Shown here piece after piece: positions 2,576 through 15,735 of a stretch of 64,000 nt of DNA. The notes below the pieces were generated by a model. The model did no database searches, had not been told where the DNA came from, and saw only the letters and a list, made by a program, of their open reading frames with translations. The DNA comes from Escherichia phage ES12. The stretch's first letter is position 1; every line of letters starts with the position of its first letter. The stretch is from sequence record MN508614.1; one strand, 5' to 3'. A program made the translations under genes and the position numbers.

Positions 2576-2854
2576 TCATTCGAAATAATCTTCAATTTCA
2601 TAATCAAGGACATAAATCATTATAGTTTTTAATACATCATCAATACTTTTTCCTGGAGCTGGAATTACGTAAAAATATCCTGCTTTTGAGTTATCTTTAT
2701 AAGTTCCAATCAAGAAATCATTATTCCCAAGATGTAGTTCTTCAACTAATTCATTAACAATTGAGTGATATAAATTTGGTAGAAACTTGTATAGCTTTTC
2801 TAGAATATCAATTTTGATTGTGTATTGAACCACAGATTGAGAATCAATAATCAT
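2576..2854 (-). CDS. arn: Arn, anti-restriction protein (McrBC inhibitor), acidic DNA-mimic type
   Basis: 92 aa, strongly acidic, ATG with GGAAGG SD, next to asiA as in T4. Confidence 0.7.
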   Translation of the reverse strand: MIIDSQSVVQYTIKIDILEKLYKFLPNLYHSIVNELVEELHLGNNDFLIGTYKDNSKAGYFYVIPAPGKSIDDVLKTIMIYVLDYEIEDYFE

Positions 2855-2937
2855 AGACCTTCCCCTTATGTTTCTGTTTGCGATTAGATTCTTTAAACGC
2901 TTTCTTCTTATCCTTATGGACAGAAGCTTGATTAAAA

Positions 2938-3156
2938 TTATGTTTTGCGACTAAATTGTTCATAGTGCTGAATTACCTCTCTTAAACAATTGCATGTGAA
3001 TGAAAACTTTTTAGCTACACCACATTCAAATATATGTTCTCTTAAATCACGTGTGTCAGTATATCCCATCTCAACGATAAAATGTCTTATTAAATTTTTA
3101 TCTTTATCATTAAGAGAATTAAAATAATCAGATTTTGAATTAATTTCCCTGGCCAA
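2938..3156 (-). CDS. Hypothetical protein, 72 aa (arn-motA interval)
   Basis: Minus-strand ORF in the compact early operon between arn and motA; contains CGV...CNC cysteines. Confidence 0.5.
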   Translation of the reverse strand: MAREINSKSDYFNSLNDKDKNLIRHFIVEMGYTDTRDLREHIFECGVAKKFSFTCNCLREVIQHYEQFSRKT

Positions 3157-3436
3157 ATTGAATCACCTTCAGTTGACGTTTTAATTCTTTTATCATTTCT
3201 TCGTTCATCGCAATATAAAGATCGCGTAAAGCAGGTTTTAACATTCCATTTACTGGAGAACTAAATGGACACACATAATCTTTTCCTACGAGCTTTTTGG
3301 CGAATTCCATATTACAGAACTTAAATCCCGGCTCATTGGTATAAATTCCCCAATTAGTTGACATCATTTTATTAGCATATTCCAGTGCCTGGATTTGATT
3401 CATAATTCCATCGATTTGAAACTTTTTAATATTCAT
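3140..3436 (-). CDS. Hypothetical protein, 98 aa (arn-motA interval)
   Basis: Minus-strand ORF tightly packed with neighbours (stop/start overlaps). Confidence 0.55.
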   Translation of the reverse strand: MNIKKFQIDGIMNQIQALEYANKMMSTNWGIYTNEPGFKFCNMEFAKKLVGKDYVCPFSSPVNGMLKPALRDLYIAMNEEMIKELKRQLKVIQFGQGN

Positions 3437-3900
3437 TAGTAAAGGTCCTCAGAGTAAAGTTCTTTTTCACTACCACCACGTTCAATACGTACTTGTCCAG
3501 CGTAAGTTGCAATAATCATTGCTTCTTCACGCGTCCAATAATTACTATATTGGTCAATAAACCCTTGGTCATCATCACAAACTTGTTGAGTAACTAATTG
3601 AGGTTTAACTACATCTAAAACTTCTGCCATATCTTTAGAATAATGACGAGCACCTGGAATAATAAGAGTTCGTCCATCTTTTAATTTAAAACGGTTGGCT
3701 GCGCAAACAATTCGTCGTTGATACTTTTGGTTTTCATCCCAGTATGCAGACTGCCAGCAGATTTCAGGAACTTCTTTCAGAACATCTTCTTCCGTATAAT
3801 TAGTATAACCTGCTGATTTAAATTTTTCGGCTAAACTCTCTGGAGTCTCACGAGATAATGCAACGTTTAGCATTTCAAGTCTTTCTTCAAATGTTTTCAT
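3436..3900 (-). CDS. Hypothetical protein, 154 aa (arn-motA interval)
   Basis: Minus-strand ORF; stop/start overlap with flanking ORFs indicates translational coupling. Confidence 0.6.
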
Positions 3901-4226
3901 TTAAACCATCCTTTAATACGTTGCCATAAAGTTTTCTGTTGAGCTTTGTTAACACCAATTGAACGAATAACTGGTTGAGATTCCTGGAATTCTTTATAAT
4001 CAGCAAGGTAAATTTCGTAAGCTGCATCTGTAAATGAACTTATTGCTGCCATAAAATTATTGCGAATACCTACTGGAGCATCTTTACTTTCACGAATAAT
4101 CATGTATTTACCAGTCTTAATCTTTACAATAGTTCCAAGATAAGCTCCGTGGTACCAAATGTCCCAACCCTCTTGAGTAGGTTCTGCGCAACGACGAAGT
4201 TCATTAACAATTTCTAACTTGTTCAT
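3897..4226 (-). CDS. Hypothetical protein, 109 aa (arn-motA interval)
   Basis: Minus-strand ORF directly downstream of motA. Confidence 0.6.
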
Positions 4227-4236
4227 TATTTATTCC

Positions 4237-4872
4237 TCACAGTTCAGATGCTACAGTGATTACAGCTTCAATGTTTTCTGCCGAGCGTTTAATGTCAAGA
4301 TACACATTACCGTTTTTAGCGATTTTACATGACATTCCGATATCAGTAAATTTCTGAATATGATGTTCCATCATTTTGTATCCAAAAATTCGCATATTTC
4401 CATTATTGTTAATTTCAAAATTACGAATTCCGTGAGTGCGTTTTTCTAAAATAGCAAGATAGTTACTGCGGTAAGTTTCAACCTTTTTAAGAACAAATCC
4501 ATTTTCATCTAAAAGTTTTAGCATAAGGTCTTTATCTTCTTCCATATCGGAAGTAATCTCACGAGCTTTACGAGTTGCTCGTTTTTTCAGTAGTTCAGGA
4601 GCATTTTCCTGTGCGTATAAAGTTGCTGCATTTGAAATAATATCCTGAGCTTCACCAGTAATGATTAATCCATCACCAGATTTCTCCACCAGGCCTTTTT
4701 TAATCAATACCCCAATATTACTATTAACTACTGCGTTACCTAAATCTGGATGCACCTCACGAACTTCTGCGGCTGTAATGAAATCTTTCTTAGCAATGGT
4801 AATTAAAATCGCAGCAGTTTTTTCATTCAGAACATCGTTAGAAGCTTTGATGATGTAAGTTACTTTAGACAT
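4237..4872 (-). CDS. motA: MotA, activator of middle transcription
   Basis: 211 aa, MSKVTYIIKASNDVLNEKTAAILITIAKKDFITAAEVREV... matches remembered T4 MotA. Confidence 0.97.
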   Translation of the reverse strand: MSKVTYIIKASNDVLNEKTAAILITIAKKDFITAAEVREVHPDLGNAVVNSNIGVLIKKGLVEKSGDGLIITGEAQDIISNAATLYAQENAPELLKKRATRKAREITSDMEEDKDLMLKLLDENGFVLKKVETYRSNYLAILEKRTHGIRNFEINNNGNMRIFGYKMMEHHIQKFTDIGMSCKIAKNGNVYLDIKRSAENIEAVITVASEL

Positions 4873-5340: not shown

Positions 5341-5490
5341 TTACTGCATGACTGTGATAACTGTCATGATAACACGTTGAATTCCGAACGCAAGAAGACC
5401 TCCTGCTACGGCAGGAACAACACCTAAACCCGCCAGTAAAATGCCACCAGATACTAATGCAGCGCTTGTGATACCAATGAATGGACTCAT
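5341..5490 (-). CDS. Hydrophobic microprotein, 49 aa
   Basis: Own translation: MSPFIGITSAALVSGGILLAGLGVVPAVAGGLLAFGIQRVIMTVITVMQ; its ATG overlaps the gene 52 stop (ATGA). Below the ORF-track size cutoff. Confidence 0.4.
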   Translation of the reverse strand: MSPFIGITSAALVSGGILLAGLGVVPAVAGGLLAFGIQRVIMTVITVMQ

Positions 5491-6815
5491 TTGATTTCCT
5501 CTAAATCTTTGGTGTATTCTGTAACTACATCAGTAGTTTTCCAATATTCGTTTTCTTCTTTTTTGGCTTTAGCTTCTTCAGCAAGTTTCTTTGCTTCGTC
5601 GGAAGTCATATGAAAAATATTCATTCCGACTAGTTTATCAACATAAGAAGAATACATCTCAATTTTAGAAAGTTCTTCGGTCAGTTCTTTACGAGTTTTA
5701 CCCTGCACAACAATTTCACCTGAAATTACTTTCTTAATGAAATGTGCCTTGGCAAAAGCTAAACGAAAAGCTGACTCAGTTTCTTTAATTTTATTATCAA
5801 TTCGTTTTTGGACATAAGTTTTACGAACTTCAACGAAGTCTTTGATTAAATCAACTACATTATCGTAAACTTGTAGTTTTCCTTTCTCATTAATAACCGT
5901 AATATTCTGAGAACGACGCTCAATCAACCCGAAGTCTTTCATAATTTTTGCATGGCGTTCTTCTTCGTTATCGCTCAAAGAGTATTCTTTGCGGAATTTA
6001 ACTTTGAAGCCAAAGCCATGCTCACCACAAGCATCATCCCATGTAATGAAGCCTTTATCTTCAAGCGGGTCTAAGATTTTACTCACATAAGTTTCACGAT
6101 CATACTTATATGGAATCTCAGTGATATGCATTTGAGTTCGTGAAGTAAACTTATATGTTCCACGAATTTCATATTGCCCATCAATTTCAACGACTTCACC
6201 ACGAAATTCTGGGAATTCTACCTTCGGTTTAGTTACTTTCTTTCCTTGAAGAGCTTGCAGTACAGCTTTCTTGACAGAAGAAACACTATGAGGAAGAATG
6301 TAAGTTGCATAACCAGTTGCAATACCGGAAACGCCATTAAGAAGAACAGTAGGAATAATAGGCAAATAGAAAGCAGGCGGAATGTGTTCTTTATCTTGAT
6401 GTACCGGAGCATATTCAGTATCTTTATATACGTTATAGAAATTTTTACTTACACGAGCAAAAATATAACGACTTGCTGCTGCCTTTTGGACAGTACGAGA
6501 ACCAAAGTTTCCTTGACCGTCTAACAGAGGAAAGTTATTATTCCAAGTGTTAGCCATCAAAGCACCTGCGTCTTGCGCAGAGTTTTCACCATGATGATAT
6601 CCAAGGTCCGCTACACCGCCTGCGATAGAAGCGAGTTTGTGAAACTTATCTTTATTTCCTCGTGCCAAATCAAGAGCTCGAGCAATAACAAATCGTTGAA
6701 CTGGCTTAAATCCGTCAATCATATTTGGGATAGCACGATTTTCAACCGTGTACATAGCATAAGCCAATGCTTCATTATCAATGATACTTTTTAAATCACG
6801 ATTATTCAGTTGCAT
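5487..6815 (-). CDS. 52: DNA topoisomerase II medium subunit gp52
   Basis: 442 aa, GyrA-like breakage-reunion domain; length matches T4 gp52. Confidence 0.97.
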   Translation of the reverse strand: MQLNNRDLKSIIDNEALAYAMYTVENRAIPNMIDGFKPVQRFVIARALDLARGNKDKFHKLASIAGGVADLGYHHGENSAQDAGALMANTWNNNFPLLDGQGNFGSRTVQKAAASRYIFARVSKNFYNVYKDTEYAPVHQDKEHIPPAFYLPIIPTVLLNGVSGIATGYATYILPHSVSSVKKAVLQALQGKKVTKPKVEFPEFRGEVVEIDGQYEIRGTYKFTSRTQMHITEIPYKYDRETYVSKILDPLEDKGFITWDDACGEHGFGFKVKFRKEYSLSDNEEERHAKIMKDFGLIERRSQNITVINEKGKLQVYDNVVDLIKDFVEVRKTYVQKRIDNKIKETESAFRLAFAKAHFIKKVISGEIVVQGKTRKELTEELSKIEMYSSYVDKLVGMNIFHMTSDEAKKLAEEAKAKKEENEYWKTTDVVTEYTKDLEEIK

Positions 6816-10764: not shown

Positions 10765-12942
10765 TTAGGCCGCAAGGGCCTTCATAGTTTTAGCGATTTG
10801 AGAAACTTCATCATCACTTAAAGAGTTGCGATATCCGATGAAGTCGGAAACAATACGGAATTTCTTGGTAAACTCAGCAACCATTTTATCACTGTTTTTT
10901 GAAGCATTATGTGATAATTCATCAAAAAGATTAGTTACTGTCCAGATGTCATGACCGATGGTATCTTTTCCACCATTAAAATATACACCCTGTAATGAAC
11001 TAACCATATTAGCGAGTCGTGTATATTCTTCAGAAACTTCATCTACACTGAAGTACTTCATCATAAAATCTAACTCAGGATACTTGATAATTTTATCAAT
11101 ATATCGTTTAGCTGAACTTGAATAACCTACATACTTATCATAATCTACATCATCAAAAGCATCTACATATAAATCACGCAAAGCTTCAAAAATACATTGG
11201 CACTGACCGAGTTCTTTTACCTTTTTCTGTAAAAGCGGACGAATAACATAAAATTCATTAATGCCAATAAGATTAGCCATACGAATCAAAATATTCATAG
11301 ATGGATGACAAAGCGATGTAGTACCATCCATAGAGAAAATATCAGAACGATGCATATACGCTACATAACCAGTAATTTCATCTGCTTCTGATGTGAGCGT
11401 AAATAATTCCTCTTTTTCCCAGCGTCCGTCTTTAATTTCAAACTTAAATGCTGTAGCAGCTTTAGGACGAGGAGCTTTACTTTTAACTACCTTTGGAATA
11501 TAGCTTTTAACTAAAGCTTCAATTTCTGACAAATAATGAATGTTAACTTCATCACTTTCAAACATCGCCATAATATCAGGAAGTAAATCAATCTGTGATT
11601 CTACTTCTGGGTTAATAAACAGAAGGCGTTCGTTATGATGAATATTCAAAGTGTTATTAAATTCACTATCATCTAACGCACGTGCTAATCCACGGACAAT
11701 ATTAACACGATTTTTAATATTATCAATAACGATATTAATTTTTGTTGCATTAATACCAAACAGACGATAACTTGATGCAACGGCCGAAGTTTCATGGCTT
11801 TGTTTAATTCGTTTCAGTCGAGGGTCAAGATTTACTTCATACACAACCCCCGCGTTGCATAACTTACTATCAGGTTCAAACATGCTTTGCATCTTTTTAT
11901 ATGACAGATTTTTAGTCGTAAATTTGACTGAATTACTAATCATATAATCTCGAGCAGAATACCCCATCTTCATCAATTCACGATATGTGTGACGAGGAGA
12001 TGTAGATTCTTTAAATCGTTTTACATCTTCATTAAATGCTTTCTCACTGAGTTCTTTAACTCGTTCAATGATATTTTTACGAGTGCGATCATCTAGTGAA
12101 AGAGCCTCGCGAGATGGAGCAATATCAAGTGAACCCATTGGAAATTTAATGTAATTCACTTCATTGCGAATGCTTAGCCAGTTACGGTCTCTAATAACAC
12201 CATCGATAGGATAAACAATACCGCCATAGATAGCATATAATCCACCACGATCTGGCCAGTATCTTTCTGGATTTACACCGTAATAGTCATCAAAATCCGG
12301 AAAATAATCAATTTCGCGGTCAAGACCATTAATGATAGCCAAATCTTTGAATGGTCGCATGATATAAGAAACTTCATAAGCAAAGTTTCTAAAGTCTTTT
12401 TCTTCAACTGGAACTACGATTTCAATACCAGTTTTATCATTTGGACCCATTTCTTTTACGAATGTAGGTTTAATCTGTGGACCATCACCATCCATGTAAG
12501 CTACATAACCACGAATTTCACCTTTATGATACGAAGTAATACTAAACGTATCAGTATAACTAAACGGAGATTTAGAACCTAAACCAAATCCGCCAATGAA
12601 ATCGTTAGATTCAGCCTTAGATGAACTGAAGTATGAATTATACAGACCAGGAGAATTATCATCACCTTGAATATCAAAATCACTCATACCCGGACCAAAA
12701 TCTCGACAAACAAATCGTGGGTCTAAACGTCCTGGAACTTGTATGATAAATTTTTCAGGATTTCCATTGAGAGCATGGGCATCAATCATGTTAGTAATCA
12801 ATTCACGGACTACTGCGCGAATCTTGTTTGTATACAAATCAGATGATAGAATTTTAAATACTTTAGGAGATGCTGTGATGCTAAATGCTTTTGATTTAGA
12901 ACCATTGCCAAGAATTGTTTCTTTTTCAGTGGTGATAATCAT
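10765..12942 (-). CDS. rIIA: rIIA protein
   Basis: 725 aa with N-terminal GHKL-type ATPase motifs; length matches T4 rIIA. Confidence 0.97.
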
Positions 12943-12952
12943 AATTTCCTCA

Positions 12953-13156
12953 TTAATTCATATTACGTTTAATAACTTCGGCAACTTCTAGTAGTTCATC
13001 TTTAGTTGCGGTGTCGGATTGAATTTTATCTCTAATATCCTTAAAGCGGTTTTTAAATTCTTCGGCTTCTCCCATATCGAAAAAGCGTTGAATGATTCTA
13101 TATTCTCGATGAACTGCTTTATCAAAAAGTTCTAAATTTACTTTATATGATTTCAT
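12953..13156 (-). CDS. Hypothetical protein, 67 aa (rIIA.1 position)
   Basis: Small helical ORF between gene 39 and rIIA, downstream of a consensus early promoter. Confidence 0.6.
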
Positions 13157-13179
13157 TTCAATATCCTCATTTGCCCAAT

Positions 13180-13212
13180 TAATTATACCACATCCTTGTG
13201 GTAAAGTAAACT
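13180..13212 (-). promoter_or_regulatory. Early sigma70 promoter for the rIIA.1-rIIA-rIIB unit
   Basis: Minus-strand GTTTAC-(18 nt)-TGgTATAAT with a perfect TATAAT -10; a near-identical copy sits at 57390-57426. Confidence 0.55.
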
Positions 13213-15031
13213 ACTGGCTCATCCATTCTTTACGAAGGTCAGCATTATCTCCCATGAGCATTTCAAAAAGCTCTTTCCAATTCTCAGGAAGTTTAACAAC
13301 ATCATATACTGGGTTTTGAATCATCTCACGATATTCAGATTTTTCCAAAGAGCCAAGTCCCTTAATATAACGGATGCTATGTTTAGGTAGAGCATCTTTA
13401 GCACTCTCATATTCAGCGACTGTATAAAACCATTCTTGTTTTTTACCGACCTGAGCGATGATTACAGGAGTTTTGACGAAGCGAATTCTTCCTTGTTCAA
13501 ACAGTTCTGGCCAATTACTAAAAAATCCGAGCAGAGAAGGATAAATGCTTCCTAGACCATCATGGTCAGCATCAGTCATAATAGCGATATTATGATAATT
13601 CAAGTTTTCAGCTTTTTCACCGAGAACTAATCCAGTGATTGCGCAAATATCAAACAGTTCTTTGTTTTTAAGCATGTCAGCATATGACATACCCCAACTG
13701 TTGAGAACTTTACCACGTAATGGATAACCACCGTGAAGTTCTTTATCACGAACATCAATAAGATATCCGATAGCCGAATCACCCTCAGTCAAGAAAAGAG
13801 TAGTATCAGCATCTTTACCACAAAGATTCGCTTTAATATGTTTATGAACCTTAGCTTTAGAAGCCTTTTTAGCTGCTTTAGTTTCTGCTGCTTTTTCTGC
13901 CGCTAATTTACGAGCCAAAGCAGCTTCAATAATCGGCATTAGAATTGCTTCATTATTTAGAATAGCACGTGAAATCTTTTTAGCATCAAGTTGAATATGA
14001 CTACGGATTTCGCCAAATGGAGAAGTCAAACGCTCTTTAGTTTGAGAATCAAATCGCATGTTTTTCATATCACGGACAAACATAACGATAGTCAAACATT
14101 CTTTAACGCGTGCTTTAGTCACATCAATTTTGAACTTACGTTTGATTTGTGGAATAAGGTCTTCACAAATATCATCCATAACACAGTCAATGTGATGGCC
14201 ACCATTCTTAGTGTGAATGTTATTCACATAAGTTAATTGACGAAAACCATCCGGTGAACGACCAACCGCAATAGAGCAATTTTCTTGTTCTTGAACAATA
14301 GCATGCTCATCATATTGGCGTGCATATTTCTTAAAATTGCCCTGAACCTTTTTACCATTAAAGGTAAATTGAATATCAGGATAAACTACTGCAAGTGTCT
14401 GGAGACGATCTAGTGTAATGTCAAGATAAACTTGGGACAGCTCATTAGTTTCAAATGACATAAAATCAGGAATGAAAGTAACACGAGTTCCTTTCCATTT
14501 TCCAGGAATAGTTTCCCATGATTTATTTTCCATGCCATTTGAACAACGAACTACAATATTATTTTGACCATCACCAGTTTCACCAACAAACATCACAGAA
14601 AAAATGTTTGTCAAACTAGAACCAACACCATTCATACCGCCAGTGACACGTTCTTTATCATCGCCAAAGTTACCACCTGCTTTTGGAATAGTCCATGCAG
14701 CAACAGGACCAGGAATTTCTTCACCGGTAGGTGTTTTAACCATCGCCTGCGGAATACCACGACCGTTATCTTCAACTGTTACTTGATTGTTTTTAATAGT
14801 AACATTAATTTTATTTGCGAATTTAAACTTAGTACGAATACCTTCATCTACTGAGTTATCGATAATTTCATCAATAAGCTTAACAAGACCAGGTACATAC
14901 TGAACACTTTCCCATTTACCAAACAGAAAGCGCTCATGCATTTCATTAGCAGAAGAGCCAATATACATGCCGCTACGCTTTTTGATATGTTCAATATCGC
15001 TCAGAATTTTAATTTCATTCTTAATCATCAC
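13211..15031 (-). CDS. 39: DNA topoisomerase II large subunit, unsplit gene 39 (covers T4 gp39 plus gp60)
   Basis: 606 aa continuous ORF: N-terminal GHKL ATPase and C-terminal Toprim region ending ...LMGDNADLRKEWMSQ; no intervening ORF or bypass gap. Confidence 0.95.
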   Translation of the reverse strand: MMIKNEIKILSDIEHIKKRSGMYIGSSANEMHERFLFGKWESVQYVPGLVKLIDEIIDNSVDEGIRTKFKFANKINVTIKNNQVTVEDNGRGIPQAMVKTPTGEEIPGPVAAWTIPKAGGNFGDDKERVTGGMNGVGSSLTNIFSVMFVGETGDGQNNIVVRCSNGMENKSWETIPGKWKGTRVTFIPDFMSFETNELSQVYLDITLDRLQTLAVVYPDIQFTFNGKKVQGNFKKYARQYDEHAIVQEQENCSIAVGRSPDGFRQLTYVNNIHTKNGGHHIDCVMDDICEDLIPQIKRKFKIDVTKARVKECLTIVMFVRDMKNMRFDSQTKERLTSPFGEIRSHIQLDAKKISRAILNNEAILMPIIEAALARKLAAEKAAETKAAKKASKAKVHKHIKANLCGKDADTTLFLTEGDSAIGYLIDVRDKELHGGYPLRGKVLNSWGMSYADMLKNKELFDICAITGLVLGEKAENLNYHNIAIMTDADHDGLGSIYPSLLGFFSNWPELFEQGRIRFVKTPVIIAQVGKKQEWFYTVAEYESAKDALPKHSIRYIKGLGSLEKSEYREMIQNPVYDVVKLPENWKELFEMLMGDNADLRKEWMSQ

Positions 15032-15044
15032 TTATCCTCGTTTG

Positions 15045-15100
15045 GTTTCGGGAATATTATACTCCGGTAATCATAAAGCTAAAGGCCCGAAGGCCTTTTA
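15045..15100 (-). promoter_or_regulatory. MotA-box middle promoter with adjacent UUCG hairpin, upstream of gene 39
   Basis: Minus-strand AAGGCC-UUCG-GGCCUU hairpin then AGCTTTA-(12)-TATAAT. Confidence 0.4.
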
Positions 15101-15367
15101 TTTAAAACGGATAGTCGAATCTTTGAAGAATAGACCAGAACATACTGTTCCTTCTACTTTCTGCCCGGTAGGTCCAATAGCACGAAATCCAGTATGCTGG
15201 AAATCATTTTCAGAGCAACCGAACCAATTATATCCAGTGATTTCAATATTAGTAAAACCGCTTGATGACAAAATTTTGGTTGCATTATCAGTATCAGTAC
15301 ATCCTGCTAAAGACACTGCTAATACTAATGCTGCGATAGAACGATTAATATATTTCATAATTTTCAC
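15098..15367 (-). CDS. Lipoprotein, 89 aa (39.1 position)
   Basis: Signal peptide with lipobox LAGC (MKIMKYINRSIAALVLAVSLAGCTD). Confidence 0.6.
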   Translation of the reverse strand: MKIMKYINRSIAALVLAVSLAGCTDTDNATKILSSSGFTNIEITGYNWFGCSENDFQHTGFRAIGPTGQKVEGTVCSGLFFKDSTIRFK

Positions 15368-15735
15368 TCAAATTTAATGGCTTGAAGGAGACTAATAACT
15401 CTCAAGCGACTTCTTTCATCTTTAACTGTAAAAGAAAGAGGGTCACCAGATTTCATAGTAATAGTACATTCAAAATCAAAATCTTCGGAAACTTCTTTGA
15501 AGAAGTCAAATTCTTCATCATAAATTAGAACATTACTCTGACAACTATGAAGAATTTTTCCATCATTTCCAGATGCTGTACTAATCATTGTAACATTATG
15601 ACCTTTCATATCTTCAACGATAAATTCACTAGTCAATATTACAGCATTAATAGAACTATTCCTATTACTAGCAGAAAGTAGATATTTCTGTTCTTCACCT
15701 TCACGAATGCGATATTTCTTACCGATTTTAAACAT
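15364..15735 (-). CDS. Hypothetical protein, 123 aa
   Basis: Minus-strand ORF, stop/start coupled to neighbours. Confidence 0.6.
   Translation of the reverse strand: MFKIGKKYRIREGEEQKYLLSASNRNSSINAVILTSEFIVEDMKGHNVTMISTASGNDGKILHSCQSNVLIYDEEFDFFKEVSEDFDFECTITMKSGDPLSFTVKDERSRLRVISLLQAIKFE

Follow-up and report, generated by a model that had tools for sequence, protein, structure and literature searches.

The large, GyrB-like subunit of the type IIA DNA topoisomerase, gp39, is almost certainly made as one unsplit chain in Escherichia phage ES12 (MN508614.1), of which a stretch of 64,000 nucleotides, referred to here as the window, was analysed. On this reading gp39 is the partner of gp52, its gene carries no MobA cassette and represents the common parental state, and the phage is predicted to be susceptible to MobA. 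The locus is the Tequatrovirus gene 39, with the ATPase, transducer and Toprim domains and the tail encoded in a single chain (Table 1). The feature is already known: it is a common and structurally characterised gene arrangement to which T4 itself is the exception. Indeed, the topoisomerase II of T2 and T6 has been described as a two-subunit enzyme and the three-subunit enzyme of T4 as a singular exception (PMC11461880), and the unsplit form has been termed the parental Topo2L (bioRxiv 10.1101/2022.08.31.505936).

Table 1. Coordinates of gene 39, its signals and motifs, and related genes in the window.
Feature	Coordinates	Strand	Basis
Gene 39, unsplit large (GyrB-like) subunit of phage type IIA DNA topoisomerase	13211..15028	minus	605 aa plus stop; ORF, Pfam, PHROGs and PDB 8ylu chain C match
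Shine–Dalgarno motif GAGGA	15035..15039	minus	6 nt before ATG (15028..15026), 3 nt before GTG (15031..15029)
Toprim motif EGDSA, residues 415-419	13772..13786	minus	Motif search; gp39 side of the T4 split
Toprim DxDxD motif DADHDG, residues 486-491	13556..13573	minus	Motif search and gp60 alignment; gp60 side of the T4 split
Parental gene 39 stretch of 64 nt, replaced in T4 by the MobA/bypass cassette	13547..13610	minus	blastn breakpoints against T4
Position equivalent to the T4 bypass: Gly491 GGT (13558..13556), then Leu492 CTA	13555..13558	minus	Codon listing, T4 gene 60 alignment
rIIA.1, directly downstream of gene 39	12953..13156	minus	Pfam T4_RIIA1, 1.4e-33
rIIA, downstream of gene 39	10765..12942		Neighbour of gene 39
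Gene 52, GyrA-like DNA breakage-reunion subunit	5487..6815	minus	442-aa ORF; Pfam DNA_topoisoIV, 1e-76

Between 13211 and 15031 the minus strand holds a single open reading frame of 606 codons if read from a GTG, and the probability of 606 codons without a stop at the base composition of the window is ~6e-22. The listing of reading frames and the alignments with T4, T2 and T6 thus bear out an earlier reading made from the sequence alone (hereafter the sequence-only reading), in which an unsplit topoisomerase gene 39 in one reading frame had been described. The length of 606 amino acids given there has, however, to be corrected. The second codon of this frame is an ATG (15028..15026), and the sequence 5' of the gene start reads cGAGGAtaaGTGATG. 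The annotated gene 39 products of T4, T2 and T6 all start with MIKNEIK. The ATG start and a product of 605 aa are preferred because of the spacing to the Shine–Dalgarno motif and this annotated start, while the GTG start was rejected since it lies too close to the motif and the three annotations agree with the ATG.

The domain content of the product is that of a complete GyrB-like subunit. The GHKL ATPase domain is present, with the Pfam model HATPase_c matching residues 48-150 (38.4 bits, cutoff 26.4), and a motif search located all of the ATPase motifs EIIDNSVDE, DNGRGIP and GGMNGVG. The transducer, the second GyrB domain, is recognised by DNA_gyraseB (51.1 bits, cutoff 27) and carries its QTK loop at residues 329-331, and the Toprim-associated tail is recognised by TOPRIM_C (30.7 bits, cutoff 29). 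The Toprim model itself covers residues 410-492 with 17.5 bits, under its cutoff of 23.1; scores under the cutoff are commonly obtained with this divergent phage family, and the match to the solved T6 structure over the full length, described below, carries more weight. EGDSA and DADHDG, the two parts of the metal-binding site of Toprim, lie in one polypeptide and make up a complete Toprim domain, and every catalytic motif sought in gp39 is intact. Further, the whole protein matches the PHROGs family phrog_543, 'DNA topoisomerase II large subunit', at 1.6e-295. Bacterial GyrB and ParE and the N-terminal half of eukaryotic Topo II have the same architecture of GHKL ATPase, transducer and Toprim, and phmmer gave full-length matches to human Topo II alpha and beta (~1e-59) and to ParE (~4e-48), although gp39 is much shorter than these bacterial and eukaryotic counterparts. 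T-even topoisomerases are not known to have a GyrA-box/C-terminal wrapping domain, and they relax DNA and do not supercoil it.

The closest characterised counterparts are the gp39 proteins of T2 and T6, which share the length, the domain order, the genomic position and the partner gp52. In both phages a gene 39 of 605 aa lies in this place, with 39.1 on one side and rIIA.1 on the other, and in an alignment of the three proteins 602 of the 605 columns are invariant, so that the comparison with T2 and T6 proposed in the sequence-only reading returned the same unsplit form. Two residues differ from T2 gp39 (F70L and T173D), with 95.8% nucleotide identity over the gene, and one residue differs from T6 gp39; what separates the window from T2 and T6 is only synonymous-level divergence and nothing functional. 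All 605 residues are also matched by chain C of PDB entry 8ylu, with 604 identical and Q526H as the sole substitution. The database entry names no organism, and we assign the chain to T6 gp39 because of its length of 605 residues, the mention of 8YLU in a study on the T4 and T6 enzymes (PMC11461880) and the fact that column 526 is variable in the T2/T6 alignment. Cryo-EM structures of T6 gp39 have been solved, and the T6 enzyme is a heterotetramer of gp39 and gp52 with DNA relaxation activity (PMC11461880).

In T4, the same enzyme is encoded by genes 39 and 60 between the same flanking genes, with proteins that are 98% and 96% identical in the common parts. By blastp, residues 1-473 of the window protein (2-474 in the 606-aa numbering) align with residues 1-473 of T4 gp39, with 465 of 473 identical, and residues 472-605 (473-606 in the 606-aa numbering) align without gaps with residues 27-160 of T4 gp60, with 128 of 134 identical. 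The reading frame therefore includes the gp60-equivalent region, as had been supposed. The alignment to T4 gp39 ends at residue 473 of 516, leaving the final 43 residues of the T4 protein without a counterpart in the window, and that to gp60 begins at residue 27, leaving its first ~26 residues likewise unmatched. It was also claimed that the single frame spans both the ATPase and the Toprim parts, which is correct; the split of T4, however, is not between the two. The split at 473/474 falls inside Toprim, between EGDSA and DADHDG, and it is therefore the Toprim domain itself that T4 divides over two polypeptides; in the window protein the domain is whole. Judged from these alignments, the labels 'the ATPase' for T4 gene 39 and 'the Toprim' for gene 60 would both be wrong. 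The same statement, that the T4 split lies within the Toprim domain, has been made before (bioRxiv 10.1101/2022.08.31.505936). A local difference between the two proteins was also seen in the transducer. At residues 324-331 (14036..14053, minus strand), MRFDSQTK is read in the window, in both T2 and T6 and in the solved chain ascribed to T6, and MRLIRQTK in the reference T4 gp39. The difference sits directly before the conserved QTK loop; either T4 has truly diverged here or its old reference contains an error.

At the DNA level the window is collinear with T4 on both sides of a single replacement. Positions 15360-13611 match T4 5661-3911 at 96.1% and positions 13546-12903 match T4 2793-2150 at 98.3% (blastn), and the two blocks are separated by 64 nt in the window (13547-13610) versus 1,117 nt in T4 (2794-3910). 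The 1,117 nt of T4 hold the 43-aa C-terminal extension of gp39, the mobA pseudogene, gene 60.1, the N-terminal extension of gp60 and the 50-nt gap. These breakpoints agree with what has been published on the structure of the MobA element: it is ~1.1 kb long, deletes 64 nt of Topo2L in the worked example and replaces the deleted stretch by homR, a diverged copy encoded in the insert with 67-81% DNA identity (bioRxiv 10.1101/2022.08.31.505936). When the peptides and DNA of the T4 insert (MobA and the C- and N-terminal extensions) were searched against the 64 kb by tblastn and blastn, no match was found save at the homR-equivalent stretch. This sole match is a coding stretch within 13556-13615, with 78% identity over the 46 nt from 13557 to 13602.

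Similarly, the bypass has no counterpart at this locus. In T4, GAT GGA is followed by UAG and a hairpin-bearing 50-nt gap that ends in GGA, after which UUA GGU is read; the window has GAT GGT CTA GGA AGC. The glycine codon at the bypass position is thus GGT, versus the take-off codon GGA of T4, with neither a stop nor a gap behind it, and in the alignment with T4 gene 60 the window sequence has a clean gap of 50 nt. The take-off and hairpin pattern, searched with up to 3 mismatches, had no match in the window. The breakpoints and the searches together uphold the statement of the sequence-only reading that gene 60, the bypass element and a mobile insertion are all missing here, and the remnants of the take-off and landing sites that it suggested looking for are absent from the window by pattern search, tblastn and blastn.

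The same 64 nt carry the prediction of susceptibility. In T2, the nick made by MobA falls in the homR-equivalent region, and invaded genomes are protected only by the bypass insert (bioRxiv 10.1101/2022.08.31.505936). The homing site, where MobA nicks the DNA of naive phages, probably lies within the stretch from 13547 to 13610. A single synonymous nucleotide separates this stretch from T2, and another one from T6. Because this target is intact and hardly differs from the one in T2, the phage would be susceptible, as the recipient, to MobA homing when a MobA-positive phage infects the same cell.

Gene 39 was found in 513 phage records and the T4-type insert in 43 of them, a proportion that is approximate since a good share of the 43 are T4 isolates, laboratory derivatives and RefSeq/GenBank duplicates. 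This leaves ~470 of the 513 records without a T4-type insert, so that about nine in ten sequenced relatives are unsplit. The sequence-only reading had taken the unsplit gene to mark the phage as T2/T6-like at this locus. The form is indeed the one found in T2 and T6; however, it does not discriminate, since the unsplit state is the norm and therefore says little on affinity to T2 or T6, and the gene is about equally close to T2 (95.8% nucleotide identity) and to the T4 flanks (96% and 98%). Escherichia phage ES26 (MN508618.1) is 100% identical to the window over the 24 kb tested, and its record has no annotation in the collection searched. Another record, that of Shigella phage CT01 (OK018184.1), has ~600 nt of E. 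coli chromosomal DNA from the ycaO region within gene 39 (4030..4790), followed by a duplicated gene 39 segment of ~290 nt. A second type of mobile element in gene 39 was considered for this record and rejected; with chromosomal DNA next to a duplicated gene 39 segment, it is most likely an assembly chimera.

From this distribution and from the absence of a scar we infer that the unsplit state is ancestral. It could instead be secondary, if the MobA/bypass cassette was once present in an ancestor and was then removed, either through recombination with a relative that had not been invaded or through a precise deletion. Recombination among T-even phages is free and would be easy at this site, where the flanks share 96-98% identity with T4, and a stepwise erosion of the MobA element has been described, with the split reading frames re-fused in one clade (bioRxiv 10.1101/2022.08.31.505936). 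Such a loss is nevertheless very unlikely, and a locus that was never invaded is favoured on four grounds. There is no scar, because the 64-nt target is parental sequence, one nucleotide away from T2 and from T6, and not homR (78%). Further, the remnants of the C- and N-terminal extensions are absent, although the published secondary fusions keep them (bioRxiv 10.1101/2022.08.31.505936). The unsplit form also predominates, being found in ~90% of relatives. Finally, in the published view the insertions are recent and arose independently within clades (bioRxiv 10.1101/2022.08.31.505936). There is little chance that gene 39 is a scar-free revertant from a lineage that was once invaded and regained the parental sequence by recombination. 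If true, this would point to an ongoing cycle of gain and loss of the MobA element in natural Tequatrovirus populations, a possibility already raised in the published work on the element (bioRxiv 10.1101/2022.08.31.505936).

That the continuous reading frame is an assembly or sequencing artefact collapsing a real insertion, or else an open but inactive pseudogene, has a negligible probability: assembly problems do occur at the gene 39 locus, as in the record of Shigella phage CT01, but the window retains the very 64 nt that an insertion would delete, the same continuous gene of 1,821 nt is present in hundreds of independently sequenced phages, and the product has intact catalytic motifs throughout and is identical at 604 of 605 positions to the subunit of an enzyme with proven activity and solved structures.

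For the uninvaded, unsplit gene 39, the function can be proposed from analogy because of the near-identity of its product to the characterised T6 enzyme. The protein would pair with gp52, whose gene lies in the same window, to form an A2B2 heterotetramer that is expected to move one DNA duplex, driven by ATP, through a double-strand break opened transiently in a second. The complex would relax DNA and thereby probably support phage DNA replication. Since the MobA homing-endonuclease cassette is missing from the locus, the gene is not divided into 39 and 60, its product bears no additional extensions at the termini, and a translational bypass of 50 nt does not occur.

Beyond correct annotation the importance of the locus is small, and no open question becomes newly testable through it. 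A fitting label would be 'DNA topoisomerase II large subunit, gp39 (unsplit)', with 605 aa and an ATG start, which would serve equally for the unannotated record of ES26. The locus provides a textbook contrast to T4 in that it is an uninvaded target of the MobA homing endonuclease. Phages with an uninvaded gene 39 are used as recipients in homing experiments, and the T6 form of gp39 has already been characterised in structure and biochemistry.

The neighbourhood of gene 39 follows T4 as well. Upstream are homologues of T4 39.1, 39.2, goF, cef and motB, as judged from the list of reading frames and the T4 gene order, and the order as a whole is that of T4 minus gene 60, gene 60.1 and mobA, which in T4 lie between gene 39 and rIIA.1. 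Directly upstream of gene 39 is the homologue of T4 39.1, an 86-aa reading frame (15098..15358, minus strand; phrog_902) that starts with a lipoprotein-type signal, MKYINRSIAALVLAVSLAGC, with the lipobox LAGC. The intact form is common to T2 and T6. In the T4 reference the lipobox is altered (LINS) and there is a 1-nt insertion, and only a 65-aa product is annotated. From these features the homologue is predicted to be a small phage lipoprotein that looks degraded in T4, unless the old reference was mis-sequenced. Between 39.1 and 39.2 a further reading frame of 123 aa (15364..15735, minus strand) belongs to phrog_622, a family of unknown function, and weakly resembles goF-type proteins in their N-terminal part (phrog_13003, 3.5e-07). 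At this place T6 has an annotated reading frame of the same size and T2 a shorter one; in T4 the interval is just ~106 nt of intergenic sequence.

Several candidate signals were noted around the gene on the minus strand. A scan of 12900-15450 with promoter and terminator consensus sequences gave site counts not above the shuffled expectation, and it did not call the hairpin and the TATAAT described next. Between 39.1 and gene 39 is a GC-rich hairpin, AAAGGCC-TTCG-GGCCTTT (15098..15081). On its 3' side, GCTTTA is followed after 12 nt by TATAAT (15061..15056), without a sigma-70 -35 element, an arrangement that we take to resemble a MotA-dependent middle promoter of T4 more than a sigma-70 promoter. 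On the other side of the gene, immediately behind its stop codon and in front of rIIA.1, the scan found a sigma-70-like site at 13210..13182, in which TTTACT and TG-TATAAT are separated by 17 nt.
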